The notes under the pieces were generated by a model. That model worked only from the letters and a program-made list of their open reading frames with translations, did no database searches and was not told the origin of the DNA. A DNA stretch of 64,000 bases from positions 231,154-295,153 of the forward strand of contig JAPPMU010000024.1 in NCBI GenBank assembly GCA_028873965.1, written 5' to 3'. Both the position numbers and the translations under genes were made by a program. Source of the stretch: Chloroflexota bacterium. GTDB lineage: Bacteria > Chloroflexota > Dehalococcoidia > Lucifugimonadales > UBA3495. Of the stretch, positions 4,751 through 29,801 are shown piece by piece (within the stretch, counting starts at the first letter, position 1; every line of letters starts with the position of its first letter).

Positions 4751-6331
4751 ATGCTCAACATTCTAACCGAACCACTGATTGGCATGACCACGGCAGAAGG
4801 CACCCGACCCGTATCCCTGCCGGAGGTGTACGCAGTGCTGATGGCCGACGAGGTGGAGGCGTTTCCGGCGCTGCGTCCACACCAGCGCCACGCTTGGCAC
4901 GCTTCTCTGGTGCAGTTGGCAGCTATGGCAATGCACCGGGCTGGGGTCGCTGAGCCGCCGGCGGATGAGGTGGAATGGGCGGGGCTGATACGGGGGTTGA
5001 CGGCGGATTGGACGGATGATGAGCCGTGGCAGTTGGTGGTTGATGACATTACCAAGCCAGCGTTTATGCAGCCGCCGGCTCGCTCCGCCGACAAACTGGC
5101 GGAGTACAAAAGCCGGGTGGAAACTGCTGATGAGCTGGACATGCTCGTTACATCCAAGAACCACGATTTGAAAGCGACTGTCGGGGCCCAGTCTGGCGTA
5201 GATGACTGGATATACGCGCTGATTTCATTACAGACGATGGAGGGTTTCGGCGGGGCCGGCAACTACGGCATCTCCCGTATGAATGGTGGTTTGGGCAGCC
5301 GTCCAGCGTTTTCCATGGCCCCAACCGGCAGGGTCGGAGCTCACGTCAAGCGGGACATTCGAGCGTTGCTAGACAACTATCCGACAACCGGCGGCGGTCA
5401 TCGCCTGTTGTGGCTGCTGTCGTGGGACGGAACCGCAAGTGAAAGACTGCTACCGAACCAACTGGCACCGCACTACATAGAAGTTTGCCGGCGCGTCCGG
5501 CTGCGCTCCGATGCTGACGGCCGGTTGTACGCTGTCCGAACCAGCACCAAAGCGGCTCGTATTGAGGGTAAAGATCTCAAAGGCCGGACCGGTGATCCCT
5601 GGACGCCGCATAACCCGAACCGGGATGGGTTACCGCTGACTATATCGCGTGGCGGCTTCAACTACAAACGGGTAACGGAATACCTTTTTGACTGGCAAAA
5701 TCCCGACCTGCTGAAAGCTACGCCTGACGAACAACGCTCGAATGACCCTGATGAAACGATGCAGTTGGTAGCTCGCGCCATGGTGCGGGGTCAAGGCAAG
5801 ACTGAAGGCTACTACGAGCGCGTCATCCCCATTCGGAGCAAGAAAGCGTTGCGCGGAATGACGCGGCGCCCAGGCAGTGACAGCACGGAAGACTTGGGTA
5901 ACTTGGCCCAAGAACGCATTAAAGAAGTTGGCATCGTGCAAGGTATCTTGCGCCATGCCATCGCAACGTTCCTGGCGCGCGGTGAATCCAGAGAGACCAG
6001 CCCGGAGCAGCGGGCTTTGGCCAATCCATGGGCAAATCGTTTGGACGAAATCGTTGACGCCGATTTCTTTGATGCCTTGCAAGTTGAGTTTGAACACAAC
6101 GACCGCGCCGAGCGCGAGCGTGTCCGAAATGAGTGGCTGATGAACGGCAGGGATGGCGTCGTTGACCACGCTCGCAACATCCTGGATGAGGCGGTGGATT
6201 CTCTGCCTTGCCCAGCCGTTCACCGTTATCGAGCCCGCGAAAACGCGGAAGGGCTGTTTGAAGGACGAATACGCAGAAGCGGAGGGTTGCCGTTTCTGTT
6301 TGACAGAACGAATTTTGAGGTGACGAAATGA
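4751..6331 (+). CDS. cse1: type I-E Cascade large subunit Cse1/Cas8e
   Basis: Starts MLNILTEPLIGMTTAEGTRPVSLPEVYAVLMADEVEAFPALRPHQRHAWHASLVQL, a typical CasA N-terminus. Length is 526 aa. It occupies the position after cas3 and its stop overlaps the cse2 ATG. Confidence 0.93.
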   Translation: MLNILTEPLIGMTTAEGTRPVSLPEVYAVLMADEVEAFPALRPHQRHAWHASLVQLAAMAMHRAGVAEPPADEVEWAGLIRGLTADWTDDEPWQLVVDDITKPAFMQPPARSADKLAEYKSRVETADELDMLVTSKNHDLKATVGAQSGVDDWIYALISLQTMEGFGGAGNYGISRMNGGLGSRPAFSMAPTGRVGAHVKRDIRALLDNYPTTGGGHRLLWLLSWDGTASERLLPNQLAPHYIEVCRRVRLRSDADGRLYAVRTSTKAARIEGKDLKGRTGDPWTPHNPNRDGLPLTISRGGFNYKRVTEYLFDWQNPDLLKATPDEQRSNDPDETMQLVARAMVRGQGKTEGYYERVIPIRSKKALRGMTRRPGSDSTEDLGNLAQERIKEVGIVQGILRHAIATFLARGESRETSPEQRALANPWANRLDEIVDADFFDALQVEFEHNDRAERERVRNEWLMNGRDGVVDHARNILDEAVDSLPCPAVHRYRARENAEGLFEGRIRRSGGLPFLFDRTNFEVTK

Positions 6332-7194
6332 CTACCCCAACGCAGACTGACCCAGAATTGGCTAGGCGTAGCTATGACTATCTTCACCCACAGTACCGCG
6401 CCGCTCGCACAGAAGCTCTTGCCCGTTCGAAGGGACAGTGCCAGTTCTGTGGTGAACGACCCGCCGCTGAAGCCCACCACTGGGCGACGGACTATCCTTC
6501 TGAAGAGGAGATGACAGCTGATGATCTGACCGGCCTGTGCCTCTTCTGCCATACGATGGCAACAACCATTCGGAGATTTCGTGGCGACCCTTGGGAACTA
6601 TTGGAAAGGTTCAGAGAACAACAGAGGAAGTCGCCGAATGATTCCCAGCCTTACCAGTTTCAAGGCGGAGTCGCCGTGCCTATTGCGAGGGATATCGCAA
6701 TTCTTTCCACCCATAAGAGGGGAGATTTTGCCGGACTGCGCCGTATGGACCCGAACGAACCTGACACGGCAGCCTTCTGGCGGTTGATGGCCAGCGAAGG
6801 GTTGCTGGGCAACCCCGACGCAGAACGCAAGTGGGCGCTCATTATGTGCGGCATTGCCCTGATGACACGCACTGCCGCCGATGACAACCCTTTCAACCGT
6901 TCCGCTCACAACGGGAGTATGCCGGTGGGCCGGGCGCTCTACGAAAGCGGATACAGCGAAACACGCTTCAACCGCCTGCTCACCGCGCGGGACGATATGC
7001 TTCGCGTCCTGCTGACCCGGATGTTCCGGATGCTGGCCGCCGAGCAGGCGACCTTCGACTGGCGGGAGATGGCTGCGTTCATCCTGAACGATGGCTTCAA
7101 CGACGAACGCGCCGAAGAGGGCCGTCGCCGCCTGGCCCGAGCCTACTACCGGGCCGAGCGGCGCGGTTCCCAACAATCAGAAACCCAGCAATGA
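6328..7194 (+). CDS. cse2: Cse2/Cas11 small subunit with N-terminal HNH nuclease domain
   Basis: ATGA overlap with the cse1 stop. Residues 20-85 form an HNH motif: YRAARTEALARSKGQCQFCGERPAAEAHHW...DDLTGLCLFCH. Residues about 110-288 are Cse2-like (GLRRMDPNEPDTAAFWRLM..., ...RLLTARDDMLRVLLTRMFRML..., ARAYYRAE). At 288 aa it is longer than the roughly 160-200 aa usual for Cse2. Confidence 0.88.
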   Translation: MTTPTQTDPELARRSYDYLHPQYRAARTEALARSKGQCQFCGERPAAEAHHWATDYPSEEEMTADDLTGLCLFCHTMATTIRRFRGDPWELLERFREQQRKSPNDSQPYQFQGGVAVPIARDIAILSTHKRGDFAGLRRMDPNEPDTAAFWRLMASEGLLGNPDAERKWALIMCGIALMTRTAADDNPFNRSAHNGSMPVGRALYESGYSETRFNRLLTARDDMLRVLLTRMFRMLAAEQATFDWREMAAFILNDGFNDERAEEGRRRLARAYYRAERRGSQQSETQQ

Positions 7195-8387
7195 CCAACG
7201 GGAGAATGACGATGACCACCCCCAGATTTCTGCAAATTCACACCCTGCACTCGTACCCGGCCGCCCTGCTGAACCGGGACGACTCGGGCCTGGCCAAGCG
7301 GATGCCTTTCGGCGGGGCTACCCGCACCCGCATCTCATCCCAGTGCCTCAAGCGGCATTGGCGGGTGGCCCAGGACGAGTTCGCGCTGCGCGGCATCGCC
7401 GGAACTACCGCGGCCCTGCGCTCACGGAACGTCGTCGAGCGCAAGGTAATACAGCCGTTGCGCAAAGCCAATGAAATCGACAAGGAGATCCTTGACGCGG
7501 TGGAAAACGCATTCAACATCGGCGTGTACGGCAGCAGCGGCACCACCGAATCGGGACGACAACCGCTGCTCCTGGGCCTGCCCGAAGTGGAGTATCTGCA
7601 ACAGAAAGCCTCCGCCATTTGTACGGAACACCCCGACGACGCCAAAGCCGCCGGCGATGCCGCCACGTTGCTGTTCAGCGCGCGGCGCGGCGAGGGCAAT
7701 AACTTCGCCGCCTTCCGCGACGCCGCGCGGTTGCCCGGCGGTCTGGAAGGCGCGCTGTTCGGGCGGATGGTTACGTCGGACCCGGGGGCCAACATCGAGG
7801 CGGCCATCCACGTGGCCCACGCCTTCACCGTTCACGCCGAGGAGAGCGAGAGCGACTATTTCTCCGTGGTCGATGATCTCCAGCGGGAGGACGAGGACGC
7901 CGGCGCCGCCCACATCGGCGACATGGAGCTGACGGCGGCGTTGGCCTACGGCTATGTCGTCGTGGACGTGCCGGGGCTGGTGTCCAACCTGGAGGGCTGC
8001 GACGCCGGCGAGTGGGACAGTGCCGACCGAGAGCTGGCCGGCAAGGTGGTGGAGCACCTGATCCATCTGATTGCCACCGTGTCGCCAGGGGCCAAACTTG
8101 GGTCCACTGCTCCCTATAGTTATGCCGACTTGATGGTCATTGAGGCCGGCAGCCGCCAGCCGCGCAGCCTGGCCAACGCCTATCGCCGACCGGTTCCGGC
8201 GCGCGTCGATGCCGCCACCGACGCGCTGGCCGCCTGCCTGGGCAAGCTGGATGACGCCTATGGCGGAAAGGAAATCCGCCGCGTGATGTCGGTGGAGGAC
8301 TGCGACATCCCCCGGGCGGAGCGCCTCTGCCTGGACGATCTGGCGACGTGGGCCGCAGAAGCCGTGAGGAACGGTGAAGCGAAATGA
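7191..8387 (+). CDS. cas7: type I-E Cascade backbone subunit Cas7e (Cse4/CasC)
   Basis: Contains RFLQIHTLHSYPAALLNRDDSGLAKRMPFGGATRTRISSQCLKRHWR, the canonical CasC N-terminus. ATGA overlap with cse2. Confidence 0.95.
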   Translation: MTNGRMTMTTPRFLQIHTLHSYPAALLNRDDSGLAKRMPFGGATRTRISSQCLKRHWRVAQDEFALRGIAGTTAALRSRNVVERKVIQPLRKANEIDKEILDAVENAFNIGVYGSSGTTESGRQPLLLGLPEVEYLQQKASAICTEHPDDAKAAGDAATLLFSARRGEGNNFAAFRDAARLPGGLEGALFGRMVTSDPGANIEAAIHVAHAFTVHAEESESDYFSVVDDLQREDEDAGAAHIGDMELTAALAYGYVVVDVPGLVSNLEGCDAGEWDSADRELAGKVVEHLIHLIATVSPGAKLGSTAPYSYADLMVIEAGSRQPRSLANAYRRPVPARVDAATDALAACLGKLDDAYGGKEIRRVMSVEDCDIPRAERLCLDDLATWAAEAVRNGEAK

Positions 8388-9136
8388 CCATGCGGCACCT
8401 GATCATCAACCTGGAAGCGCCGCTGATGGCATTCGGCGGCGAGACGATTGATAATCTCGGCGTGATCAGGCCGTTCCCGGCCGCGTCGATGATTACGGGC
8501 CTGTTCGCGAACGCCCTGGGCTGGCGGCGCATCGAACGGCAGCGACACCAGGAATTGCAGGACCGGATGGTCTTCGCCGCCCGCATCGACCGGGAGCCGG
8601 CCGGCGGCGTCCGCATGACAGACTTTCAGACGGCCCAACTGGCCGCCAACGACCGGGGCTGGACCACCCGGGGCGCTCCGGAAGGCCGCGCCGGAGGGGC
8701 CAACACCTACCTGGCTCCGCACCTGCGCTACCGCGACTACTACGCTGACATGCGCGTCACGGTGGCGCTCCGGCTGGAGCCGGCGGCCGACGCCCCGACC
8801 CTGGATGATCTGGCCAACGCTCTACAGCAACCCGCCCGGCCCCTGTTCATCGGACGGAAACCATGCCTGCCATCGGAGCCCTTGTACGGGGACTTCGCCC
8901 AGGGGGACACGGCGCTGGCCGCGCTGCTCAGCGTGGCCCCGGCCGATAATGGACGCGGCGCTCTCTGCCGTCTCCAGTGGCCCCGGGGCGAGGGCGTGGC
9001 CGACGTCGACGCCAGCCGGACGCGCCTGATCACCGACCAGCGCAACTGGAGTTCGTCGGCTCTGCACGGCGGCGGCCGCTGGGTCTGCGAGGGGAGCGTT
9101 GACCGCAGCCGTTGGACGGAGGTGGCAGCATCATGA
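8384..9136 (+). CDS. cas5: type I-E Cas5e (CasD)
   Basis: Starts MTMRHLIINLEAPLMAFGGETIDNLGVIRPFPAASMITGLFANALGWRR, a typical Cas5e N-terminus. Overlaps the cas7 stop. Confidence 0.95.
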   Translation: MTMRHLIINLEAPLMAFGGETIDNLGVIRPFPAASMITGLFANALGWRRIERQRHQELQDRMVFAARIDREPAGGVRMTDFQTAQLAANDRGWTTRGAPEGRAGGANTYLAPHLRYRDYYADMRVTVALRLEPAADAPTLDDLANALQQPARPLFIGRKPCLPSEPLYGDFAQGDTALAALLSVAPADNGRGALCRLQWPRGEGVADVDASRTRLITDQRNWSSSALHGGGRWVCEGSVDRSRWTEVAAS

Positions 9137-9867
9137 CGGAACCGTTGCAGATGATCCGTGCTGAAATCAACGTGCGGGACTTCCAGCGCTGGATGGGTAT
9201 GCGCCGGCTGCAGGACCCGGACCATGCCATGCACTGCTTCTTGGTTGAGTCGTTCGGCAGCGAACTTGCGCCCAAGCCCTTCCGCGCCATCTTCCCGCGG
9301 GGTGGGTCCCACGGGTGCTTGTATGGCTACGGGACGGCGGATGCAGAAACGTTGCGCGAAGCCGCCGGCCTGTACGCCGACCCGTTGCAGTCGCGCATCA
9401 TCCCGCCTCACGGCATCGACAGCAAACCCATGCCGGCCGAGTGGACCGCCGGCAAACGGCTGGGCTTCGAGGTTCGCGTGAGGCCCGTTGTCCGGCGCAC
9501 GGACAAGGCGGAATGCCGGCCGGGCCGCGAGTGGGACGCCTTCCAGCTGGAGGCCATCCAGCATCCCAAGGGCGAGATGCCCCGCAGCCGCGAGGAAGTT
9601 TATACCGACTGGCTGCGCCGGCAATTTCAGATTAGAGGAGGCGCAGCGCTGGAGTCGGCGACACTGGTGTCCTTCCAGCGCACCCGCGCGGTCCGCCGTC
9701 TGCGCGGCGGATACAGCGAGGGACCCGACGCTCTGATGCGCGGCGTGCTGGAAATCACCGACGGTACTGCCTTCGGCAAACTGCTTGCCGGCGGCGTGGG
9801 ACGCCACCGGGCCTACGGGTACGGAATGCTCCTGCTGCGCCCCGCCGGCCGCCAGCCCGCATCCTGA
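9133..9867 (+). CDS. cas6e: type I-E Cas6e (Cse3/CasE) crRNA endoribonuclease
   Basis: ATG 9133 overlaps the cas5 TGA. The C-terminal glycine-rich motif GVLEITDGTAFGKLLAGGVGRHRAYGYGMLLLRP parallels E. coli CasE GIGPAKSMGCGLLSLAP. Gene order supports the call. Confidence 0.9.
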   Translation: MTEPLQMIRAEINVRDFQRWMGMRRLQDPDHAMHCFLVESFGSELAPKPFRAIFPRGGSHGCLYGYGTADAETLREAAGLYADPLQSRIIPPHGIDSKPMPAEWTAGKRLGFEVRVRPVVRRTDKAECRPGREWDAFQLEAIQHPKGEMPRSREEVYTDWLRRQFQIRGGAALESATLVSFQRTRAVRRLRGGYSEGPDALMRGVLEITDGTAFGKLLAGGVGRHRAYGYGMLLLRPAGRQPAS

Positions 9868-9935
9868 CCCCGTGGATCACCGCACCTTAACAACTGAATA
9901 CCTATCCCCGTCATGGGGGAACGGAGGCGACGCGA

Positions 9936-10913
9936 ATGTTGAGAGGAAGACTGGGGCTGGAGACGGCCCGCATCCCCCACGCCGACCGTCACGGTCTGCT
10001 CTGGCTGTCTCGAGGCGCGTTGACGGTGCGGGACGGCACGTTGCGCTTTGAGCGCCATGCGAGCCCCGACGCCGACAGTTCAATGGATGCCGGCGAGTAC
10101 GGCATACCCTTCCAGAGCCTGTCCATGATCCTGCTGGGTCCGGGCTCCACGGTGAGCCACGACGCCCTGCGGCTGATGGCGCGCCACGGCACCGGGCTGG
10201 TGGCCGTGGGCGAGGACGGCGTGCGGTGCTACACCGCGCCGCCCCTGATGCCCGACACGTCGGACATTGCCCGGCGCCAGATGCGTGCGTGGGTGGACGC
10301 CCAGGGCAGCCGCATCACCATCGCGCGCAAGATGTACGCATTGCGCCTGGGCGAGGTGCTGCCCCACACCGACATCACGGTGCTGCGGGGCATCGAGGGC
10401 GCGCGGATGAAGCGCACCTATCAGAACCTGTCGCGCCAGTATGGGATAACCTGGCGGCGACGTCGCTACGACCGGACCAATCCCACGGCGGCGGACATAC
10501 CCAACCAGGCCATTAACCACGCGTCGGTGGCGGTCACGGCGGCGGCGGTGATCGCGGTTACGTCCCTGGGGGCCATCCCACAGTTGGGGTTCATCCACGA
10601 GCACAGCGGCGAGGCTTTCGCCCTGGATATCGCCGACCTGTTCCGCGATACGGTGCTTCTGCCAGCGGCGTTCCAGGCGGCGGCCGAGGTGGAGAAAAAC
10701 CCCCGGCTGGATGTGGAACGGCACACCCGGCGCACCACGGGCGATATGCTGCGGAAAGAGCGCGTCATCCCGAAGATGATCGACCGCATCAGGACCCTGT
10801 TCCAGGACGTGACTCCGCTGGACGCCGGGCCGGCCGTGGACGCCACGCTGATGGACGGCTGGCCGGATGAGGATGCCCCGGATCAGGATTCATTGGAGGA
10901 GGAGGTCCAATGA
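9936..10913 (+). CDS. cas1: type I-E Cas1 integrase
   Basis: 325 aa. Collinear by eye with E. coli Cas1 (LRGIEGARMKRTYQNLSRQYGITWRRRRYD, GFIHEHSGEAFALDIADLFR). Confidence 0.95.
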   Translation: MLRGRLGLETARIPHADRHGLLWLSRGALTVRDGTLRFERHASPDADSSMDAGEYGIPFQSLSMILLGPGSTVSHDALRLMARHGTGLVAVGEDGVRCYTAPPLMPDTSDIARRQMRAWVDAQGSRITIARKMYALRLGEVLPHTDITVLRGIEGARMKRTYQNLSRQYGITWRRRRYDRTNPTAADIPNQAINHASVAVTAAAVIAVTSLGAIPQLGFIHEHSGEAFALDIADLFRDTVLLPAAFQAAAEVEKNPRLDVERHTRRTTGDMLRKERVIPKMIDRIRTLFQDVTPLDAGPAVDATLMDGWPDEDAPDQDSLEEEVQ

Positions 10914-11218
10914 CGGTAGTGGTAACCGTGAACGTGGAGGGCCGGTACCGGGGGTTCCTGGCCTCGGTGATGCTGGAAATCGCGCCGGGAGTGTACACGT
11001 CGCCGGAGATGACCAGCGGCATCAGGGATCGGATCTGGGACGTGCTGGTCCGATGGCACGGAGAACTGGGCAACGGATCGATCGTGATGACTTGGCGGGA
11101 CCCCGCGGCGCCGGGCCAGCAGCAGATCCGGAGCCTGGGCGATCCGCCCAAGGAGATCGTGGATGCCGACGGCGTGTATTTGGTAAGATACGGTGAGGCC
11201 CGCACTCTTGGCGAATGA
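10910..11218 (+). CDS. cas2: type I-E Cas2
   Basis: 102 aa starting MTVVVTVNVEGRYRGFLASVMLEIAPGVYTSPEMTSGIRDRIWD, which resembles E. coli Cas2. Overlaps the cas1 stop. Confidence 0.95.
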   Translation: MTVVVTVNVEGRYRGFLASVMLEIAPGVYTSPEMTSGIRDRIWDVLVRWHGELGNGSIVMTWRDPAAPGQQQIRSLGDPPKEIVDADGVYLVRYGEARTLGE

Positions 11219-11235
11219 AATTCGATAGATATTAT
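11208..11235 (+). promoter_or_regulatory. candidate CRISPR leader promoter (-35 TTGGCG, 16-nt spacer, -10 TATTAT)
   Basis: Boxes read directly at 11208-11213 and 11230-11235. This is the only AT-rich stretch, and it sits between the cas2 3' end and the first repeat at 11248. Confidence 0.35.
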
Positions 11236-11247
11236 CAGCCGCCAAGA

Positions 11248-14200
11248 GGTTCCCCCGCACGCGCGGGGATAGACCCACTTTGCGTTGGAGCAAAACACGT
11301 TGCTCGACGGTTCCCCCGCACGCGCGGGGATAGACCGCAGTTGCGGTAGATGTTGCGCTTGACCAGGTTGGTTCCCCCGCACGCGCGGGGATAGACCCGC
11401 CGCCGCCGGAGTACCAGCCGCAGTCAGGGCGGTTCCCCCGCACGCGCGGGGATAGACCCATCAGCCGGTCAAGAGAGACGCCACTGTTGCCGGTTCCCCC
11501 GCACGCGCGGGGATAGACCGGCTACCCGGGCGCAACGGGATTGGCTGATGCGGGTTCCCCCGCACGCGCGGGGATAGACCTTCCAGCGGCGCATCATCCG
11601 GTTCCAAACCCACGGTTCCCCCGCACGCGCGGGGATAGACCGTCGCGACTTTGGAGCGGGCATTCCTTCACGACGGTTCCCCCGCACGCGCGGGGATAGA
11701 CCCTCGGTTCCCGCAGCCCGGTGACGACTGGTTCAGGTTCCCCCGCACGCGCGGGGATAGACCTTGTGCCATTTTTCGTAATGAGGGTGAGCGATTGGTT
11801 CCCCCGCACGCGCGGGGATAGACCCGATGACGACGATGACTATTCGGGCATCTACTCGGTTCCCCCGCACGCGCGGGGATAGACCCCATCCACAGCGTTT
11901 GCCGCAGTTCGCCGGATGGGTTCCCCCGCACGCGCGGGGATAGACCCTGCCCGATTTCGTTGCGGGTCCGCTCCGGGGTGGTTCCCCCGCACGCGCGGGG
12001 ATAGACCGGTGTTGGCGGGCGCCTGTCCAAACGGGCGTGAGGTTCCCCCGCACGCGCGGGGATAGACCCCTGCGCAGCACGGTGGAAACGCAGCGGCTGC
12101 GGGTTCCCCCGCACGCGCGGGGATAGACCCGATGCCAAGTCGCCGCCGGGATTGCGCGGATAGGTTCCCCCGCACGCGCGGGGATAGACCTCTTGGCGGG
12201 CATGGTGAGATTGTAGCGGCACAGGTTCCCCCGCACGCGCGGGGATAGACCCGGTGAATACATACCAGAGATGCTATGAGCGCAGGTTCCCCCGCACGCG
12301 CGGGGATAGACCACGTGTCGGGGGGCAGTTCTATGTGCGGGGGTGGGTTCCCCCGCACGCGCGGGGATAGACCCTTCGTGCCATTTAGCGAGTAGACCCT
12401 GACCTCGGTTCCCCCGCACGCGCGGGGATAGACCTGGTCATACGGACGATGCGGGAATCGCCGAGGCGGTTCCCCCGCACGCGCGGGGATAGACCGATGT
12501 TGAGCAGCTTCCACCCGGCGCCGCCGGCGGTTCCCCCGCACGCGCGGGGATAGACCGATGACCGGGCCGCGCATCCCCGGCGGGAGTTTGGTTCCCCCGC
12601 ACGCGCGGGGATAGACCCTGCGCATTGTCCGCATTGTGGCCGGCACGCTGGGTTCCCCCGCACGCGCGGGGATAGACCGTCCCTAGCAGTTTGAGGCTCC
12701 AAAAAGAACTCGGTTCCCCCGCACGCGCGGGGATAGACCGGCGTGGTTTCCCGGATTGTCGCGCCCCCGGGGGGTTCCCCCGCACGCGCGGGGATAGACC
12801 CTCTCCGACACGCCCACCGCCCACGAGGAAGTCGGTTCCCCCGCACGCGCGGGGATAGACCCCGCATCAGATCCCAGGGTCTGACACGCAAGGGGGTTCC
12901 CCCGCACGCGCGGGGATAGACCGTGGCGCACCAGCCCTTGCCCCATGAGCGTTTGGGTTCCCCCGCACGCGCGGGGATAGACCCTGCGCGTACTGTGCTC
13001 ACAATTGAGCCTGATTGGTTCCCCCGCACGCGCGGGGATAGACCGTACAGGGTATCAGATAGCACAATACGCGACGCGGTTCCCCCGCACGCGCGGGGAT
13101 AGACCCGATGATGACAGTGGATACAACGGTACGGCAAAGGTTCCCCCGCACGCGCGGGGATAGACCTCACTTTCGGGCGGTATGAAAAGGGTTACGTGGG
13201 GTTCCCCCGCACGCGCGGGGATAGACCTTTGCCTTGCCAGCCTTTCCGCTATCAGGTCGGGGTTCCCCCGCACGCGCGGGGATAGACCTTCCATATCCGC
13301 TCCCGATGTTGATGTTGGTGTGGTTCCCCCGCACGCGCGGGGATAGACCGCCCTTGTACGTTCCTGTCTCTACCCTCATCATGGTTCCCCCGCACGCGCG
13401 GGGATAGACCCCATCTATAGCCCCCTGTACGCGCCTTCACCGAGGTTCCCCCGCACGCGCGGGGATAGACCCCGCATCGTAACCGATTTCGGCGGCATGA
13501 CCCCGGTTCCCCCGCACGCGCGGGGATAGACCCCAACGTGGTCATCCTCGCCCTGGCCGGCGGAGGGTTCCCCCGCACGCGCGGGGATAGACCCGCTTCA
13601 CCTACATGGGAGACGACGACAATGAAGGTTCCCCCGCACGCGCGGGGATAGACCGTCCACCGGGGCCGCGTACAGCATGGTAAGACAGGTTCCCCCGCAC
13701 GCGCGGGGATAGACCTCACTATGATTGGGCCGATGGGCACTGGGATAGGGTTCCCCCGCACGCGCGGGGATAGACCTACGCAGGATATACTCGTTGCGTT
13801 GAGGGACTGGGTTCCCCCGCACGCGCGGGGATAGACCGTCATTCCCACGGCCACGTCGCCCTCCGCCTTCGGTTCCCCCGCACGCGCGGGGATAGACCCT
13901 CCTCGCTGGGCCGGCGGTCCGAGAGGGCGAAGGTTCCCCCGCACGCGCGGGGATAGACCGCGGCAAGGGGGAAAGTGGCGCATCATTGCTTCGGTTCCCC
14001 CGCACGCGCGGGGATAGACCTCAACCCGCGTCGTCCGGCCCACCGTGCTCCGCGGTTCCCCCGCACGCGCGGGGATAGACCGGCCCTATCGGATGGGTCA
14101 AGTTGGGCGTCGCCGGTTCCCCCGCACGCGCGGGGATAGACCCCACTCGCCCCGCGTGACGCAGTGGACGTGGGAGGTTCCCCCGCACGCGCGGGGATAG

Positions 14201-17200
14201 ACCCATAAAGAATATTATTTCACCCAACCGTGCCCGGGTTCCCCCGCACGCGCGGGGATAGACCCCTGGCCGCCGTAACCTACGAGAGCCTGGGCGAGGT
14301 TCCCCCGCACGCGCGGGGATAGACCGTACCAGCGGGGGCGGGCCTCGGTGTTGGGCGGGGTTCCCCCGCACGCGCGGGGATAGACCCACCCCCGCACATA
14401 GAACTGCCCCCCGACACGTGGTTCCCCCGCACGCGCGGGGATAGACCCTGTTGGTGGGCGCCGGGGACGCGAGATCGCCAGGTTCCCCCGCACGCGCGGG
14501 GATAGACCGGATATGAGCAGGTTCATTATCGACATGGTTTCGGTTCCCCCGCACGCGCGGGGATAGACCGAGGCGGCCACGTCGTCCAGGTTGGTCCAAC
14601 GGGGTTCCCCCGCACGCGCGGGGATAGACCCTGTCCAATTTTCGGATGCAGCAGGGTTCAGGGGGTTCCCCCGCACGCGCGGGGATAGACCCATCAGTCA
14701 TCTGGACACGTCGTTTCGGTCTGGGGTTCCCCCGCACGCGCGGGGATAGACCGTCCTGAACCCAGGCGCGCCGCAGGGTCCGCAGGGTTCCCCCGCACGC
14801 GCGGGGATAGACCCTCTTCTATAAGAGGTTCGAGCGCCTCTTCATAGGTTCCCCCGCACGCGCGGGGATAGACCTCATATTCTGATTGATAGGGGCGGCC
14901 TCTTTACGGTTCCCCCGCACGCGCGGGGATAGACCCTATTACAAGCAGTCCCTTGCCAGCATTGGCGAGGTTCCCCCGCACGCGCGGGGATAGACCCGTC
15001 CAAAAAAATAACACCTAGGTGTTACAGACGGTTCCCCCGCACGCGCGGGGATAGACCTTTGTCGGCAAAGACTTTATAGAGGAAAGACTGGGTTCCCCCG
15101 CACGCGCGGGGATAGACCGATCAGGCCATTGCCCAATACTGGTCGGGGAACGGTTCCCCCGCACGCGCGGGGATAGACCGGCGGTTCGGGCAGCAGCCCC
15201 CCGTCCGATGTTGGTTCCCCCGCACGCGCGGGGATAGACCCCACCAACCAGCGGGCCGTCCGCGCGTCGCTGCGGTTCCCCCGCACGCGCGGGGATAGAC
15301 CCGACCCAGACGTTGCGGGGACGTCCATAGGCCCGGTTCCCCCGCACGCGCGGGGATAGACCGGAAGCCAGGTTGTACGGATGGGCCATCGTGGAGGTTC
15401 CCCCGCACGCGCGGGGATAGACCCCGAGGCCGAGGCCTATCTCAGGAGGTGACCAAGGTTCCCCCGCACGCGCGGGGATAGACCCTTCAGCAAAGCCGGC
15501 TTTGGCTTCATCACCCGGGTTCCCCCGCACGCGCGGGGATAGACCGGACCGGAGCGGTGAGCCGGAGATGCGCTACGCGGTTCCCCCGCACGCGCGGGGA
15601 TAGACCCCCCGCGACCAGCTGGACTACGAGAACAAGGAGGGTTCCCCCGCACGCGCGGGGATAGACCCCGCTCCATCGCCTCGGCCGCGGCGCCCGTGCC
15701 GGTTCCCCCGCACGCGCGGGGATAGACCCGGTGAATACATACCAGAGATGCTATGAGCGCAGGTTCCCCCGCACGCGCGGGGATAGACCCGCCGTTGCCC
15801 ATAATGTTCCAGGCTTGCCGTGGGTTCCCCCGCACGCGCGGGGATAGACCTTGTGTGGCTGTTCAACCCGGACGGCGCGGCTTGGTTCCCCCGCACGCGC
15901 GGGGATAGACCGTTGCACGATGATACCGCAAAGTGGGTGGACGTGGTTCCCCCGCACGCGCGGGGATAGACCCGCGGTTGACGAATTCCTGCGCCAACCC
16001 CCGTTGGTTCCCCCGCACGCGCGGGGATAGACCGCCGGCCCTCCAACCTGGGCTCGACCATACCCGGGTTCCCCCGCACGCGCGGGGATAGACCCCAATA
16101 TGACCGGATGGGACGCGACAACAGCATGGTTCCCCCGCACGCGCGGGGATAGACCCGCCAACGCCAACGGCGCGGTGGGTATAGCGCTGGTTCCCCCGCA
16201 CGCGCGGGGATAGACCGTACATGGCGTGGGTGGAGTCGACGATCGACGAGGTTCCCCCGCACGCGCGGGGATAGACCGGTGCCAAACACCAGCAAGTGCG
16301 CGGCGAAGGCGGTTCCCCCGCACGCGCGGGGATAGACCCCACGTTCACGATGGTGCGGTTATCCTGCAAGAGGTTCCCCCGCACGCGCGGGGATAGACCC
16401 TGCCCGATCTCATTGCGGGTCCGCTCCGGGGTGGTTCCCCCGCACGCGCGGGGATAGACCCGGTGTGAGGCCCTGCGAGTGTCCGTAATGGATGGTTCCC
16501 CCGCACGCGCGGGGATAGACCCATCTCATAGGCGTTGTGCGGACCCTCCGGCGAGGTTCCCCCGCACGCGCGGGGATAGACCCCAATAACCGCGCAGTAC
16601 CCAGCTCTCCGCGTAGGTTCCCCCGCACGCGCGGGGATAGACCCTCGGCCGCGGTGATTCCATCTTCCCGCCAGGCGGTTCCCCCGCACGCGCGGGGATA
16701 GACCTTGGACGCCGTCCTCGACGTACGCCTGCTCGGCGGTTCCCCCGCACGCGCGGGGATAGACCCCTGATCTTGAACTCCGGCGCCGGAGGCGAGCGGG
16801 TTCCCCCGCACGCGCGGGGATAGACCGCATATGAGCGTTGCCTACCCACATTGCCAGCCGGTTCCCCCGCACGCGCGGGGATAGACCCGAAACGGCCAAT
16901 GTATCTGAGCGTACCCGACTGGTTCCCCCGCACGCGCGGGGATAGACCCGCCATGATTTACGGAATGCCCTATCAGCCGCCGGTTCCCCCGCACGCGCGG
17001 GGATAGACCGATGGTACAAATATTCAACTATGAGGTGAATATGGTTCCCCCGCACGCGCGGGGATAGACCCTGAGACGGGCAAGGTCAGCGCGGCGCAAG
17101 CCGGGTTCCCCCGCACGCGCGGGGATAGACCCGTCTAGCGGAGATAGGTTGACACCGGGTATCTGGTTCCCCCGCACGCGCGGGGATAGACCCTGAAGGG

Positions 17201-17802
17201 AGTACGCAATCCGACGGATGCTACTGGTTCCCCCGCACGCGCGGGGATAGACCCCTGTATCATTATCATATCCTCCGTAAAGCCCAGGTTCCCCCGCACG
17301 CGCGGGGATAGACCTTTCTTGAGCCCGGCGACTCCCTGAAGGGGCGGGGTTCCCCCGCACGCGCGGGGATAGACCGGCACAATCCGCGACGCCGTTTTCG
17401 GTGAAGGCGGTTCCCCCGCACGCGCGGGGATAGACCCATCCACTGGGGGGCAAAAACTGGGTGAAAGTAGGTTCCCCCGCACGCGCGGGGATAGACCCTT
17501 AGCCACTCATGTGGCATTCACTTACAGGGCGGTTCCCCCGCACGCGCGGGGATAGACCCCTTCGGCTCATTTTCACCTTGCCGTCGCTGCCGGTTCCCCC
17601 GCACGCGCGGGGATAGACCTTCGTGGACAATGGCCCGCTGCCCTAGAGGGGTGGTTCCCCCGCACGCGCGGGGATAGACGTTTTGCACAGTCAGCGCAAG
17701 ATCGGCGGTTGGTGGTTCCCCCGCACGCGCGGGGATAGACCGCATCGGAGTTACCATATCTCCGAACTCTATTCGGTTCCCCCGCACGCGCGGGGATAGA
17801 CC
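11248..17802 (+). CRISPR. type I-E CRISPR array, block 1: 108 repeats of GGTTCCCCCGCACGCGCGGGGATAGACC with 33-nt spacers
   Basis: First repeat at 11248 and last at 17775, a distance of 6527 = 107 x 61. Repeat orientation matches E. coli GTTCCCCGCGCCAGCGGGGATAAACC, so the array is transcribed on the plus strand from the cas2 side. The repeat at 17653 ends in G instead of C. Confidence 0.97.
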
Positions 17803-17811
17803 CCTTGCCCC

Positions 17812-18039
17812 ATGACTACGCTTTTTGTTCAAGAATGGGATAGGCTAGACCATGTGGCCGCGGCTGAATACGGCCAGGTTAGCGACGCTGCGCTCCGCAC
17901 TCTGATTTGGAGCAATCCCGCGCTGCCATTCGGGATCAATTTCCCGCCGTCAACGATCCTGAACGTTCCCGCCGATCCGATCTCGGTTCGGTATTCAGCG
18001 GACGTTGACCCGACGTCGAAGGCTGCGCTTGACGGGTGA
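17812..18039 (+). CDS. phage tail protein X-like (P2 gpX-like) ORF
   Basis: 75 aa. LFVQEWDRLDHVAAAEYGQVSDAALRTLIWSNPALPFGINFPPSTILNVPAD fits the recalled tail-X pattern (GDTLD..YG......ANP.L.....LP.G..I.LP). Confidence 0.45.
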   Translation: MTTLFVQEWDRLDHVAAAEYGQVSDAALRTLIWSNPALPFGINFPPSTILNVPADPISVRYSADVDPTSKAALDG

Positions 18040-18044
18040 ACGAA

Positions 18045-18161
18045 ATGGATTGCAAATGCAAATGCGGTTGCCGATTGCCTCTATACCCGTGGGATTATGC
18101 GTCGGGTATCTGCGAAAACTGCGCCGAACGGTGTCAGAATTCGTTGGGCAATGGGCGATAG
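18045..18161 (+). CDS. 38-aa Cys-rich ORF
   Basis: Own translation: MDCKCKCGCRLPLYPWDYASGICENCAERCQNSLGNGR. Too short for the supplied track. Confidence 0.2.
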   Translation: MDCKCKCGCRLPLYPWDYASGICENCAERCQNSLGNGR

Positions 18162-18265
18162 GTTCTTTCCAGGCCGCCGCCGGCCCCTTGCGGCTCAACG
18201 GCGCACGAGTCGGCAAGTGCGGTGATGCCAAGTATTATCAAATGCGATACGGTGAATGATCCGAT

Positions 18266-18491
18266 ATGCCGCGTATCACGCAAAAGGAAATCGCGGGCGT
18301 GGTTGGGGTTTCGCAGGCGACCGTTTCCGGTTGGCAGTTGGGGCGCAACCCGTCATGGATCGACGTTGCTGCAAAGGTAGTCAGCACGGATCGCCTGTAC
18401 GGTGAACCCGCCATGCGTGACCTGATCCTGCGGGTCGTCGCGGAGCGGGATCCGAACGCAACCCCGCTTGGCAGTCGCGGCCGTTGGGAGT
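18266..18491 (+). pseudogene. XRE/Cro-like HTH gene truncated at the junction with the CRISPR repeat
   Basis: MPRITQKEIAGVVGVSQATVSGWQLGRNP is a classic HTH. The ORF has no stop of its own and reads into repeat and spacer sequence (track ORF 18266..18577). Confidence 0.5.
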
Positions 18492-20456
18492 GGTTCCCCC
18501 GCACGCGCGGGGATAGAGCGTTACATTACATGAATACGTTAATGTCAGCTTCGGTTCCCCCGCACGCGCGGGGATAGAGCCCGTATGGTCGGCGACAGTG
18601 ATGCCGCCGGGGTGGTTCCCCCGCACGCGCGGGGATAGACCCCAAGCCGTTATGGAGTACCCCCCATATACCATGGTTCCCCCGCACGCGCGGGGATAGA
18701 CCTCAGTTTGTGGGCAAAGACTTTATAGAGGAAAGGGTTCCCCCGCACGCGCGGGGATAGACCGTCATGCCCTCGGTTTGCCCCTACAATGACAACGGTT
18801 CCCCCGCACGCGCGGGGATAGACCTTTCAGTACAGGGATTACTAAATCGTCAATTTGGGTTCCCCCGCACGCGCGGGGATAGACCGATTTCGCTCGCCGC
18901 AGTGATGCGCAGGCGTCCGGTTCCCCCGCACGCGCGGGGATAGACCCGGCGAGGGCCGTGTTGTACACCCAGATCGCCGGGTTCCCCCGCACGCGCGGGG
19001 ATAGACCCGGCGAGGGCCGTGTTGTACACCCAGATCGCCGGGTTCCCCCGCACGCGCGGGGATAGACCCTGGGACGACATGGTGTACGTGACCCAGTACT
19101 AGGTTCCCCCGCACGCGCGGGGATAGACCCGTGAGGTCGATGGTGTCGGCCTCAAACATCTGGGTTCCCCCGCACGCGCGGGGATAGACCCCCGGCGGGG
19201 AGCTAGGCCCGATGTGGATTGCGGGTTCCCCCGCACGCGCGGGGATAGACCCCGGACACCGATGGAGCGGATGTTCGGCAGATCGGTTCCCCCGCACGCG
19301 CGGGGATAGACCCGTCCAGGTCCACGACGACGTTGCGGCGACCGAGGTTCCCCCGCACGCGCGGGGATAGACCCTATCGCATTGATCCCGCGCCGTATCC
19401 GGTACTGGTTCCCCCGCACGCGCGGGGATAGACCGGTTCAGATGACCCGGGATCTGAAAGCCGGCCGGGTTCCCCCGCACGCGCGGGGATAGACCCAACC
19501 GGGGCGCCATCCCCCTGGAGGGATTTGCGGTTCCCCCGCACGCGCGGGGATAGACCGCTCTGCCTGACCGCGAACGCGCCCCGCGTGGCGGTTCCCCCGC
19601 ACGCGCGGGGATAGACCCGAGGTTGACAACCGGCCCTACGTCCGGCGCCGGGTTCCCCCGCACGCGCGGGGATAGACCCATCACGGCGCTCGCGGGGATC
19701 ACCACCACTCTGGTTCCCCCGCACGCGCGGGGATAGACCCCCACGATCTCGCGGTCGGTCAGCGGCGGCACCGGTTCCCCCGCACGCGCGGGGATAGACC
19801 CGGTGGTGGCGTGGGGGTGGGCGTCATGGTCGGGGTTCCCCCGCACGCGCGGGGATAGACCCCCGATCCCACAGGTCAGGCGAGCCCTCATCGCGGTTCC
19901 CCCGCACGCGCGGGGATAGACCCCTGACGATCCACGAAGGGGATGCCCGCAACCTGGTTCCCCCGCACGCGCGGGGATAGACCCAGGACAGGCAATAGCC
20001 CTTCCAGTTGCCGCCGGGTTCCCCCGCACGCGCGGGGATAGACCCGACTGCGCCGAGTGCGGCGCGCTGGCCGGTTCGGTTCCCCCGCACGCGCGGGGAT
20101 AGACCCCCCTGGCAGCCGCGGCGCAACGCCAGGGACGGGGTTCCCCCGCACGCGCGGGGATAGACCGCACACCGGCTACCAGTCCATGTTCATTGGCGAG
20201 GTTCCCCCGCACACGCGGGGATAGACCTGAACATCAGCGCAAACACCGACGCCGCGGCCAGGTTCCCCCGCACACGCGGGGATAGACCCTCCTTTATTCA
20301 GCGGATCACGAGCACCGGCGAGGTTCCCCCGCACACGCGGGGATAGACCGGGACGGTCCAAAGCTTTCAAAATCGCAAAGGCGGTTCCCCCGCACACGCG
20401 GGGATAGACCGCGAAGCCCGGCGATATTCCAAATGCCGGTCGGGGTTCCCCCGCAC
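18492..20456 (+). CRISPR. type I-E CRISPR array, block 2: 32 full repeats plus a 13-nt truncated terminal repeat
   Basis: Repeats lie at 18492 + 61k for k = 0 to 31. The first two carry C27>G (GATAGAGC). The last four (20200, 20261, 20322, 20383) carry loop change G14>A. The final copy, GGTTCCCCCGCAC at 20444-20456, is cut off. Confidence 0.97.
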
Positions 20457-20774
20457 GTAGTCCTTGACGATGGTGTGCTTGCCCTCGAACCCGTACTCGT
20501 CCCGGAGCCGCTCGAATATCCGCTTGACGGTATGGCGCTGCTTCCTGGGAACGTGGCGATCCGCCTCCAGGATGGCGTCAATTACGCCGGTGAACGGCTC
20601 GATCTTCGGCTTACGCGGCGGCCTCTGGCGCGTGTAGCCCTGGGGCGCGGCATTGGCCAGCATCTTGCGCACCGTGTCCCGGTGCACGCCGAACACCCGC
20701 GAGGTCTCCCGCACACTCATCCCCTCCACCAGGCAGGCTCGGCGAACCTGATAATACATCTCCACGGAAAACAT
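20457..20774 (-). pseudogene. istA: IS21-family transposase IstA, N-terminal fragment only
   Basis: MYYQVRRACLVEGMSVRETSRVFGVHRDTVRKMLANAAPQGYTRQRPPRKPKIEPFTGVIDAILEADRHVPRKQRHTVKRIFERLRDEYGFEGKHTIVKDYV matches the IstA HTH N-terminus. The frame then runs into the truncated CRISPR repeat. Confidence 0.8.
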
Positions 20775-21010
20775 CCATCGCACCTTCCACAGGCTGAAAA
20801 TCAGCCCTATGAAAGGCGACGGGTGGTACGGTTTTCCTCCGCCCAAACCTGTCGATCGGGCCGCCCGCGCGGTACATTTTCTCTCCGCCCTTTACACCGA
20901 TGCCCAGAGTGCGCGGAAAAACACCAACGCGCCCAAGCGAGCCTGACACATACGATGTAAGAAAGGACAAGCCTGACAGTCCAGCAAATGCACAGGCGAA
21001 ACCCGCCAAG
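20457..21010 (-). mobile_element. IS21-like element remnant (left end plus 5' part of istA)
   Basis: Reiterated GCCTGACA-like motifs at about 20939, 20970 and 21012 upstream of istA resemble the multiple terminal repeats of IS21 ends. The outer boundary is approximate. Confidence 0.45.
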
Positions 21011-22569: not shown

Positions 22570-23800
<1,231 letters not shown>

Positions 23801-28059: not shown

Positions 28060-28287
28060 ATGGAGGTGGAGATTGCACCTGAGGAAAGTAGCTGGGAGGC
28101 CAGCGTCGTGATTCGGGTCTTTGAACTCGTTGCATCGGGTCTGAGCTTAGGCGCGGCTGCCGAACGGATAAACGAGGAGTACTCCCAAGTCGGGGAATGC
28201 ACGAACCTGTCCCAGGTTCGATTAGAAGGCAAAGGAGGGCTGAAATGTCGACAACCAAAAATAAGGCGAAGGTGTGCCCAAGGGTGA
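28060..28287 (+). pseudogene. short ORF resembling the recombinase-domain HTH segment of serine recombinases (fragment or small excisionase-like gene)
   Basis: WEASVVIRVFELVASGLSLGAAAERINEEY parallels EAAVVKRIFRLYVDGWSMYRISKQLNEEG in the adjacent intact recombinase. Confidence 0.25.
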
Positions 28288-29801
28288 GCTCCGCGCTCCA
28301 GGAGGACGGGACCTCCTTGGAGTCGCAGGCGCTAGCGTGCATCAAATTGGCGGAATCCTTGGGGTACCAGGTCGGACCCGACGATGTTTTGCCGGAGGCG
28401 AAGACCGCAGTGAACTTGCACCGCCCGCAACTTGATGCGCTGCGCCGCATGGCGGCGGCCGGGGAGTTTGGCGCGTTGTTCGTGTACAGCTCCGACCGGT
28501 TGTCCCGTGACCCAGTGGAAATGTTGGTTCTCGTGCGCGAGTTCACCGCGTGCGGTGTGGACGTGCATTTCGTGCAGGATCCGTCGGATGATTCGCCGTA
28601 CGGCGAACTGGTGAAGTTCGTGCTCGGGTTTTCCGCCAGCCAAGAGCACGCCGAGATCCGGGAGCGCACGATGCGCGGCAGGAGAGCAGTTGCCCTTGCC
28701 GGCCGGGTGCCGGTGGGGAGCTCCGATGGCACCTACGGTTACGACTACCTGAAGGCAACGAAACAGCGGGTTGTGAACGAAGCGGAAGCTGCGGTAGTGA
28801 AACGGATCTTCCGGCTCTACGTTGACGGCTGGAGTATGTACCGGATTTCCAAGCAGCTCAACGAGGAAGGCATCCCGACAAAAACGGGCGTACGTTGGCA
28901 AGGGGCTTCGATCCGCGACGTTTTGTCGAACACTTCCTACATAGGCATTGACTACTACGGCAAGACCATGCAGGCGGTGGGCTCGGATGGCAAAAAAAGG
29001 AGCGTTCCGGCTCCTCGGGAGAATTGGATTGAGATCACCGGCTATACCGAGCCTCTGGTCACCAAGGAGTTGTGGAGGAAGGCACAAGAACGCTTGGCGG
29101 CTGCTCAGGAGCGGTACGGCGACAGAAACAAGCGTCGACAACTGCTGACAGGAATCGCGGTGTGTGGTCGTTGTGGCGGTTGGGTTAGTTCAAATGGAGG
29201 CGAAGGGAGGCATCGGTATTATCGGTGTAACAGTCGGCACTCGAAGTATGTTCGGGGGGACGAGGAGAAAGACTGCAGGGCGCCGGGAATCCGCATCGAC
29301 TGGTTGGATGATCAGGTATGCTCATGCGTAAAGGCGATGGTGAGGAATCCAAGTGGAGTCATCGCGGACTTGGAGTTGAACTTCCGGACCGGCGGCGGGG
29401 AAATCGGGAAGGAGATCGAGCGCCTGCGTGGCGAAGTTAGCAAAACGGAGCGGGAAGAAGTCCGTCTGGTGGGTCTTTACCGTCGCGGCACCATCCGTGT
29501 GGAATTGCTTGATGCCGAGATGGAGATGTTGACCGCCAAGTTAGCGGACCTGCGGCAGCGGTTGTTGGCGTTGGAAGAACAACGCACCAACGAAGAAAAC
29601 GTGGTTGCTGCGGCTGAGCGCATCCGCGATTATTGTGAGAACGTATCCGCAGGTTTGGAGGAACTGGGCGTTGATGGGAAGCGGGCGTTGATGTTTCGCC
29701 TGGGGATCAAGGTCTCGGCAGTGCAGAGGGACGTGATGGTCACGGCAGAGCTTGACTCGGGATTTGTGGTAAATGAGGCTACTACTTGTGGTTGCCGATG
29801 A
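28245..29801 (+). CDS. large serine recombinase (integrase)
   Basis: Has the catalytic RVSS..Q motif, LFVYSSDRLSRD, a recombinase domain (VVKRIFRLYVDGWSMYRISKQLNEEGIPT), a zinc ribbon CGRCGG...RYYRC, and a C-terminal coiled coil. AAAGGAGG lies before ATG 28245. Confidence 0.9.
   Translation: MSTTKNKAKVCPRVSSALQEDGTSLESQALACIKLAESLGYQVGPDDVLPEAKTAVNLHRPQLDALRRMAAAGEFGALFVYSSDRLSRDPVEMLVLVREFTACGVDVHFVQDPSDDSPYGELVKFVLGFSASQEHAEIRERTMRGRRAVALAGRVPVGSSDGTYGYDYLKATKQRVVNEAEAAVVKRIFRLYVDGWSMYRISKQLNEEGIPTKTGVRWQGASIRDVLSNTSYIGIDYYGKTMQAVGSDGKKRSVPAPRENWIEITGYTEPLVTKELWRKAQERLAAAQERYGDRNKRRQLLTGIAVCGRCGGWVSSNGGEGRHRYYRCNSRHSKYVRGDEEKDCRAPGIRIDWLDDQVCSCVKAMVRNPSGVIADLELNFRTGGGEIGKEIERLRGEVSKTEREEVRLVGLYRRGTIRVELLDAEMEMLTAKLADLRQRLLALEEQRTNEENVVAAAERIRDYCENVSAGLEELGVDGKRALMFRLGIKVSAVQRDVMVTAELDSGFVVNEATTCGCR

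Follow-up and report, generated by a model that had tools for sequence, protein, structure and literature searches.

A gene-sized, apparently phage-derived segment fills exactly one spacer slot of a 140-repeat type I-E CRISPR array

We describe a 689-bp segment, apparently of phage origin, that occupies a single spacer slot of the type I-E CRISPR array in a 64,000-nt stretch of Chloroflexota DNA (contig JAPPMU010000024.1; hereafter the window, meaning the whole stretch). The window falls within ENA scaffold_35, a 329-kb sequence of sample SAMN13943215. The segment starts and ends exactly at intact repeats, was assembled identically from a second sample, and has counterparts in other arrays. 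We tentatively favor a reading, plausible but short of probable, in which a repeat-less phage segment was copied into the array by spacer–protospacer homology. An earlier prediction, made from the letters alone (hereafter the original prediction), considered Cas1–Cas2 integration less likely; we do not share that view, and treat a mis-sized integration as a close rival.

Enumeration with the consensus GGTTCCCCCGCACGCGCGGGGATAGACC yielded 140 full 28-nt repeats (11248–20410), all on the forward strand and at a strict 61-nt period, followed by a 141st repeat cut after 14 nt (20444–20457). All 138 other repeat-to-repeat gaps in the array are exactly 33 nt; between repeat 108 (R108; 17775–17802) and R109 (18492–18519), both intact, lie 689 bp (17803–18491), as the original prediction had reported. 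Two intact flanking repeats with exact boundaries are what a canonical spacer has, and a length of 689 nt instead of 33 nt is not. Subtracting 33 from the insert length leaves no multiple of 61. No cryptic repeat was found inside the insert, where the best match to the consensus was 16/28, equal to that in control DNA; decayed repeats hidden in the segment were rejected on this basis. Directly after it stand R109 and R110, the only two of the 140 repeats with the change C27>G (GATAGAGC), again as predicted. The chance that a lone variant doublet would adjoin the insert is ~0.7–1.4%, and because chance adjacency is this low (~1%) we judge that the association is probably not accidental.

The arrangement was also present in a comparison scaffold (L005) assembled from a second sample, SAMN13943213. 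This scaffold holds spacers 100–117 and the insert, with both junctions and both variant repeats, at 100% identity; its array has N gaps elsewhere and is gap-free across the insert. Comparison with other samples, which the original prediction had proposed, thus recovered the same insert, junctions, and variants but not the pre-insertion state, and a look-up of the array-encoded pseudo-protein for a pre-insertion allele returned the source contig alone.

Composition and homology suggest that the segment is foreign and phage-derived, in agreement with its first description as phage-like. Its foreign character is indicated by the guanine–cytosine content at third codon positions (GC3), which is 0.59–0.72 in the insert open reading frames (ORFs) vs. 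0.82–0.87 in host genes, and its phage derivation by the probable membership of ORF1 in the tail protein X family. The three same-strand ORFs of the original prediction lie where it had placed them (Table 1). ORF1 itself has no Pfam hit and matches PHROG 46 at E 1e-4. Relatives came from a single search, in which phmmer was run exhaustively over 1.84 billion representative proteins and returned two credible ones: P0004, which is 41% identical to ORF1 over its full length and scores 30.9 bits on Pfam Phage_tail_X (PF05489; cut-off 22), and P0006, which leads into a second array described below. ORF2 is closely coupled to the ORF1 stop, has no family match in Pfam or PHROG, and is separated from ORF3 by 104 bp.

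ORF3, a weak helix-turn-helix (HTH) candidate, has no stop before the repeat, as had been predicted; it reads through R109 and spacer 109 into R110 and ends at 18577. It matches Pfam HTH_3 (E 0.002, under the cut-off) and HigA (E 0.33). The AlphaFold model is of medium confidence (predicted local distance difference test score 74) and shows five helices ending near residue 61; a fold search returned HTH matches only, none significant. Since the modeled helical domain ends near residue 61, any truncation of ORF3 would touch just a tail. As regards possible acr or aca genes, what is seen is small ORFs followed by a weak HTH ORF. Between two Cas6e sites, the array transcript would carry ~0.7 kb of sequence resembling mRNA and would give no normal CRISPR RNA (crRNA). 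ORF3 may be made as a fusion whose last residues are repeat-encoded, with expression driven by the promoter-like site ahead of it.

No donor was found by blastn or tblastn against 50,697 phage records, by blastn against 72,556 plasmids, by exact-protein look-ups or word-index homology searches with ORF1 and ORF3, or in IMG/VR and JGI metagenomes scanned with back-translated single proteins and an alignment. A tblastx match between the insert and the relative L122 (E 5e-4) was judged spurious, as it falls in an unrelated frame inside cas genes. Window spacer 28 contains the 13 nt with which the insert begins (CCTTGCCCCATGA), which suggests that this site of the phage was sampled once more at a later time. 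Window spacers have no protospacers in the window; window and L007 spacers compared with both inserts and L008, with shuffled controls, gave no match; and exact IMG/VR scans for spacers 63/112, 109, and 114 gave none. The host is probably a SAR202-type Dehalococcoidia: the nearest cas1–cas2 to that of the window is in SAR202 bin87 (83.6% identity), and arrays with the window's repeat occur nearly all in Dehalococcoidia, Caldilineaceae, or Binatia metagenome-assembled genomes. Study labels point to a sponge origin.

A related segment recurs in another array. P0006 is a gene call that opens as an ORF1 homolog (58% identity over 40 aa) before running on into the CRISPR array of contig L007, which comes from a different study and a different organism and has a type I-E array with the repeat GTTTCCCCCGCCCACGCGGGGATAGACC. 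There, a 547-bp segment fills one spacer slot exactly, bounded by the consensus repeats 101 and 102 (of 107). It contains the first 39 codons of the tail X homolog (58–60% identity to ORF1), which run antisense to the array and break off at the repeat, together with a complete 106-aa lipoprotein gene co-oriented with the array; tblastx relates it to the window insert at E 2e-10. Because its junctions and orientation are unlike those of the window, the L007 slot appears to record an event of its own, involving a related phage. In another sample, a 519-bp contig (L132) is identical to this slot at 460/461 positions, to the last base, and then continues with non-repeat DNA, so that the donor seemingly had no repeat at that junction. 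Taken with the consensus repeats around the L007 slot, this repeat-less, donor-like contig suggests that a slot can take up long phage DNA that brings no repeats along. Spacers of the window array begin with C (79), G (39), T (20), or A (1), a bias that suggests AA+non-A as the putative protospacer adjacent motif (PAM); the last 33 nt of the 547-bp slot, preceded by AA and beginning with T, fit it.

The same phage region apparently adjoins a third array. In a Logan contig (L130, 1123–1522), a type I-C cas1–cas2, a leader, and the first repeat are followed at once by phage sequence that begins at tail X codon 6, right after TTC in the donor, and has 90% identity with the L007 slot across 307 bp. 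TTC is the type I-C PAM. As a third long slot with a correct PAM, L130 was downgraded, since assembly at k=31 could yield it from an ordinary spacer, and we use it only as a sign that CRISPR systems target the tail X site recurrently. Counted from the tail X start, the junctions fall at −9, +117, and +17 in the window, L007/L132, and L130 comparisons; three arrays sampled one 126-bp zone of a single phage family.

A repeat-pattern scan of species-representative genomes (120 tiles, ~4066 repeats) placed gaps >130 nt in four groups. These comprise IS630-like insertions (L104 and L117), where IS stands for insertion sequence; cas1–cas2 flanked by an upstream repeat copy and so bracketed by repeats (L029, L059, L068, and L079); a few gaps with degenerate repeats, plus Sulfobacillus-type loci; and genuine long slots, of which L021 has three (377, 343, and 597 bp) and L092 (608 bp) and L054 (433 bp) have one each. 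L021 (OY282385.1) is a complete-chromosome Dehalococcoidia record, presumed long-read, with its slots at array-forward 4810–6796; each contains a complete small ORF co-oriented with the array, and the two repeats after the 343-bp slot have a private 3′ variant in common (GATAGTTG). One near-terminal spacer–repeat unit occurs three times in the L021 array. In L092 (3235–3842), a complete Phage_VG64 / PHROG 478 gene (E 6e-53) lies between degenerate repeats in a four-repeat orphan array of a Chloroflexota metagenome-assembled genome. A further L007 slot of 765 bp (7148–7912) holds 13 repeats of a different type (CCCCGCCCTCGCCCGCGTGGGGACACC) and their spacers within one host-array slot; that scaffold has N gaps elsewhere, so this slot is to be read with caution.

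Among eight long slots examined, four have first and last 33 nt that are homologous and in register. Terminal identity is 31/33 in the 597-bp slot of L021, 26/33 in the 765-bp slot of L007, and 17/33 in the 343-bp slot of L021; in the 377-bp slot of L021 it is just 8/33 ungapped, homology there being judged by eye with indels. The window insert, the 547-bp slot of L007, L092, and L054 show no terminal homology (6–10/33). In-register 33-nt ends would be the footprint expected of spacer-sized homology in recombination or templated repair. Six long slots contain complete ORFs, eight in total, and each of these is co-oriented with its array (P = 0.016).

The window insert differs from insertions by transposable elements. 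It has no terminal inverted repeats, target duplication, or transposase; its termini are unrelated, and its boundaries coincide with repeat ends. An IS or transposon insertion was therefore rejected: transposon ends are missing, the ORFs encode a tail X protein, a Cys-rich peptide, and an HTH protein, and the segment is unlike the IS630-like inserts of L104 and L117. Tn7-like elements are known to target CRISPR repeats (PMC11837452), and transposable elements do resemble the present case in placing long non-spacer DNA in arrays, as the IS630-like copies in related arrays illustrate.

Site-specific prophage integration can likewise leave repeat-flanked phage DNA, split an array, and disturb its transcription, as ΦAP1.1 does in integrating into CRISPR repeats of type II-A Streptococcus pyogenes (10.1101/2020.10.09.333658). 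A prophage that entered the window array in this way and was then almost wholly deleted could have left two phage ends; the 104-bp gap between ORF2 and ORF3 could conceal the deletion joint, and a hybrid attR could account for the variant in R109. We consider this history highly improbable. ΦAP1.1 is a complete prophage that has an integrase and joins at a fixed attP, whereas the 689-bp insert has neither an integrase nor att arms, its tail X ATG lies just 9 nt from the repeat, and R110 carries the variant too. L007 and L130 join the same phage region at other positions and in another orientation, which is incompatible with a fixed attP.

The segment might instead separate two independent arrays, with R109 the first repeat of a second array that has its own leader. 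Mutation of a first repeat followed by one acquisition would give exactly two adjacent variant repeats, and the AT-rich spacers 109, 112, and 114 would be the newest acquisitions of that array. The leader of this clade is, however, recognizable: the motif ATAGnnAnTATCA(n5-6)CCAAG(G/A) stands directly before repeat 1 in the window and in the relatives L053, L045, and L122, and more distant relatives retain TATCAA...CAAGG. It is absent from the 70 nt preceding R109, and absent too at the L007 slot. For want of this conserved motif we reject a second leader at R109, in accord with the original prediction. The 3′ end of the segment is, moreover, GC-rich coding sequence, and R108 is perfect rather than a degenerate terminal repeat, so that the two-array arrangement deserves very little credence.

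Any model must produce exact repeat boundaries on both sides from a repeat-less donor, and boundary-precise processes best explain this anatomy. Under the homology-based reading that we tentatively favor, the 689 bp would be a contiguous genome piece, without repeats, of a phage fought by the host CRISPR system. Two neighboring spacers matching that phage ~0.6 kb apart would pair with their protospacers, and homology-directed repair or recombination would replace the spacer–repeat–spacer stretch with the phage DNA between the protospacers, leaving intact repeats on both sides and phage sequence that starts and ends exactly at spacer boundaries. The ancestral array would have run spacer 107-R-CCTTGCCCCATGACTACGCTTTTTGTTCAAGAA-R-...-CAACCCCGCTTGGCAGTCGCGGCCGTTGGGAGT-R-spacer 109, and ~107 spacers would have been added after the event. 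The C27>G pair in R109/R110 would be a separate, later local event, either a mutation copied by short-tract conversion or one off-leader acquisition. We infer both the former presence of two such spacers and the recombinational nature of the event.

Our preference for this reading rests on the exact slot geometry, the intact flanking repeats, and the lack of internal repeats and of a leader motif; on recurrence in L007 and the repeat-less, donor-like L132; on the in-register 33-nt ends in 4/8 long slots and the AA|T context of the L007 slot end; and on the experimental precedent for spacer–target recombination (PMC8616872). Recombination between spacers and protospacers of phages and CRISPR loci has been shown experimentally (Varble 2019 and Watson 2018, as summarized in PMC8616872). 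As in the present model, it uses the 30–35-bp spacer–target identity as homology and joins phage to array at spacer boundaries. It is described there for phage–CRISPR hybrids that transduce CRISPR loci, not for phage segments fixed in chromosomal arrays, and the window case would need two spacers acting together.

Several points weigh against this reading. Neither a pre-insertion allele nor a donor phage for the window insert was found in the collections searched, and 0/138 window spacers and 0/4047 spacers of relatives match the insert or the other phage fragments tested. The two ends of the window insert show no relationship to one another (10/33 between its first and its last 33 nt), and CG rather than AA stands before the last 33 nt. 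The model requires two adjacent, co-oriented, correctly ordered spacers from one phage, and it gives no reason for the sole paired variant directly after the insert (chance ~1%). Finally, all sequence features of the window insert fit a single mis-sized Cas1–Cas2 integration equally well.

In that alternative, Cas1–Cas2 integrated a ~0.7-kb phage fragment at the repeat that was then leader-proximal, the accompanying duplication gave R108 and R109, and 107 normal acquisitions followed. It needs a single event and no pre-existing spacers. The window slot indeed resembles canonical type I-E acquisition in having invader DNA between full, intact repeats with exact boundaries on both sides, a first base (C) that is the commonest among spacers and fits the bias, and intact cas1e and cas2e genes beside a conserved leader. 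The arrays concerned are very large and active (140 repeats in the window, >107 in L007), the L007 donor had no repeat at its junction, and the type I-C array of L130 passes from its first repeat into the same phage region right after the donor TTC. L130, assembled at k=31, may nonetheless be a chimera through an ordinary spacer. The Cas1–Cas2 ruler sets prespacer length, and an oversized spacer contradicts it: the slot is 689 rather than 33 bp long, carries whole genes, and allows no normal 61-nt crRNA. No report of such long integrations was found in the literature searched. R108 and R109 should be sister copies, yet they differ at position 27, and the in-register terminal homology in four long slots of relatives is not predicted. 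We regard a mis-sized integration as possible but rather doubtful.

The variant repeat pair is explained by neither homology-based copying nor mis-sized integration. It may stem from mutation with short-tract conversion, from one off-leader acquisition at R109, or from co-arrival with the insert. The last of these underlies the origin originally proposed, in which the insert and R109–spacer 109–R110 arrived together through recombination with a repeat-bearing mobile element (a phage or plasmid mini-array, or a solitary repeat unit) or another CRISPR locus. In its favor are the position of the only paired variant repeats next to the insert (chance ~0.7–1.4%), a comparable private 3′-end variant pair after a long slot in L021, and the block of foreign-type repeats in the L007 array. 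Two repeats and one spacer, in a variant of the host repeat, beside small phage ORFs and an HTH gene also resemble mobile-element mini-arrays or acr/aca-linked solitary repeat units (Racr; PMC10651486). The latter have been suggested to recombine with host arrays (Faure et al. 2019, via PMC8616872).

Several of our results speak against co-arrival. The related phage with a variant repeat next to an HTH gene that the original prediction had suggested looking for did not appear: GATAGAGC occurs in 0 of 2.9 million viral contigs (IMG/VR), and its sole JGI match consists of two degenerate terminal repeats of an ordinary array. No phage, plasmid, or other mobile element with this repeat was found in these collections, and the unit sits inside a 140-repeat chromosomal array whose left boundary with the insert is a consensus host repeat. 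At that left junction, where tail X begins 9 nt past a consensus repeat, the donor would have to supply a second repeat, or the join would have to be illegitimate and exact. A simple crossover would put the variant on R108 or restore the consensus in R110, unless the exchange fell within the last base. At the L007 slot, the flanking repeats are of the consensus type and the donor is repeat-less. Spacer 109, described at first as unusually AT-rich, does have 33% GC but is not unique, as spacers 62, 63, 95, 112, and 114 are likewise <42% GC; its resemblance to its AT-rich neighbors 112 and 114 (P ~0.01–0.03) suggests that it is native to the host array. Arrival of the insert with its own two repeat–spacer units is thus unlikely.

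Assembly error offers a different account, in which two ordinary spacers correspond to the insert ends and the assembler walked through a co-occurring phage genome between their protospacers. The source is a short-read metagenome scaffold, its sister scaffold has N gaps in the array, and a repeat followed by phage sequence from the protospacer is the expected chimera pattern, which is a serious possibility for L130 at k=31. Against this, the same structure was assembled gap-free in two samples, and comparable long slots occur in the presumed long-read record L021. We rate a chimera as very unlikely because a 33-nt spacer–phage identity should not join assembly paths at k >34, and ordering 140 repeats would need large k.

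Spacers are thought to be length-locked by the Cas1–Cas2 ruler, and long DNA in arrays is usually ascribed to IS elements, prophages, or misassembly. The present slots would place gene-sized pieces of targeted phage exactly in spacer positions of several unrelated arrays. Literature searches on long, oversized, or giant spacers returned nothing relevant, and we found no description in the searchable literature of gene-sized phage fragments fixed exactly in spacer slots and recurring across arrays. If these slots are confirmed, a second, homology- or integrase-driven route for the exchange of DNA between arrays and their targets would operate in nature, and the slots would be a natural footprint of phage–CRISPR recombination so far confined to the laboratory. 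Such slots would bear on how software detects and splits arrays and on reconstructions of array history, and would raise the possibility that arrays express captured phage genes.

A bolder reading is that arrays of this mostly uncultured, apparently often sponge-associated clade capture and express whole phage genes, with 0.3–0.8-kb "spacers" retained for expression. It is hinted at by the co-orientation of all eight complete ORFs in six slots (P = 0.016) and by the sampling of the same 126-bp zone by three arrays. We hold it to be quite unlikely; if true, captured repressor-like HTH proteins and lipoproteins could give superinfection exclusion, and protein-based immunity would be added to RNA-guided immunity.

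Table 1. Features of the CRISPR–Cas locus and of the long slot in the window
Feature	Position	Strand	Basis or remarks
Type I-E cas operon	1413–11218	+	Pfam families on called genes
cas3	1413–4115	+	Pfam
cse1	4499–6331	+	Pfam
cse2	6328–7194	+	Pfam
cas7e	7191–8387	+	Pfam
cas5e	8384–9136	+	Pfam
cas6e	9112–9867	+	Pfam
cas1e	9936–10913	+	Pfam
cas2e	10910–11218	+	Pfam
Leader, non-coding part	11219–11247	+	29 nt after the cas2 stop; ends in ...ATAGATATTATCAGCCGCCAAGA motif adjoining repeat 1
Array part 1	11248–17802	+	Repeats 1–108, spacers 1–107; all consensus except R106
Repeat 108	17775–17802	+	Consensus, intact; left edge of the long slot
Putative phage-derived segment filling exactly one spacer slot	17803–18491	+	Boundaries, GC3, no internal repeat, identical in L005
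ORF1, 75 aa, putative divergent member of the tail protein X family	17812–18039	+	ATG 9 nt past the repeat; PHROG 46, E 1e-4
ORF2, 38-aa Cys-rich ORF from ATG	18045–18161	+	41 aa from GTG at 18036, overlapping the ORF1 stop
Promoter-like site TCGGCA-17-TATTAT ahead of ORF3	18210–18238	+	Consensus match only
ORF3, weak XRE-type HTH candidate	18266–18577	+	103 aa: 75 in the insert, 28 from R109, spacer 109, and R110
R109–spacer 109–R110	18492–18580	+	Both repeats with the private C27>G
Array part 2	18581–20457	+	Spacer 110 to repeat 140, spacer 140, truncated 141st repeat

The locus around the slot is a complete type I-E system (Table 1). The signature set of cse1, cse2, cas7e, cas5e, cas6e, cas1e, and cas2e is present together with cas3; NCBIfam scores are above their cut-offs for Cas1e (284 bits) and Cas2e (97 bits) and slightly under the cut-off of 70 for Cse1 (61.8 bits). 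With its 140 repeats at a 61-nt period, the array fits its type, which is marked by 28–29-nt repeats with a CCCCGC...GCGGGG stem and an AUAxACC handle, and by 32–33-nt spacers. No Rfam CRISPR-DR family reached threshold on the window, and no known RNA family was found in it. As the non-coding leader is only 29 nt long, part of the true leader sits inside cas2.

Elsewhere in the array, R106 is a singleton variant (GATAGACG), and the oldest repeats, R137–140, read CACACGCG. Spacer 17 equals spacer 74, and spacers 116 and 117 form a tandem duplicate, by which repeat-mediated local rearrangement is seen to happen in this array. Spacer 18, the sole spacer beginning with A, is spacer 52 in exact reverse complement, which has the look of a flipped integration. 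Only 2 nt distinguish spacer 12 from spacer 85, and spacers 63 and 112 overlap with a shift of 4 nt. The array of a second sample (L002 10339–11247, compared with window 11248–12280) keeps spacers 1 and 2 and is without spacers 3 and 4, which were either deleted internally there or gained off-leader in the lineage of the window. At the distal end, the cut 141st repeat abuts a minus-strand ORF (region 20444–20846) with a faint match to the transposase-like HTH_23; since the repeat is cut at the edge of this ORF, the distal array end was apparently lost to a mobile-element insertion. The 10 kb beyond the array are rich in mobile elements, among them an IS110 transposase (22797–23519) and a serine recombinase (28197–29801).

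The gap between cas3 and cse1 holds a minus-strand mini-array (4172–4260), made up of a degenerate repeat with seven mismatches (4233–4260), a spacer-like 33 nt (4200–4232), and a repeat with four mismatches (4172–4199). A partial target candidate lies on the forward strand at 4298–4330 (16/33 matches, AA before it), ~200 nt ahead of cse1. Regulatory mini-arrays are a known kind (Shmakov et al., 10.1101/2023.03.03.530964), which this one matches. The closest relative (L084/L122) has a solitary opposite-strand repeat in a neighboring tile, apparently upstream of its cas genes. Near the far end of the window, four tandem 21-nt units (CCAGTTGGTCAGTATGGGCAG-like) lie at 63396–63500.

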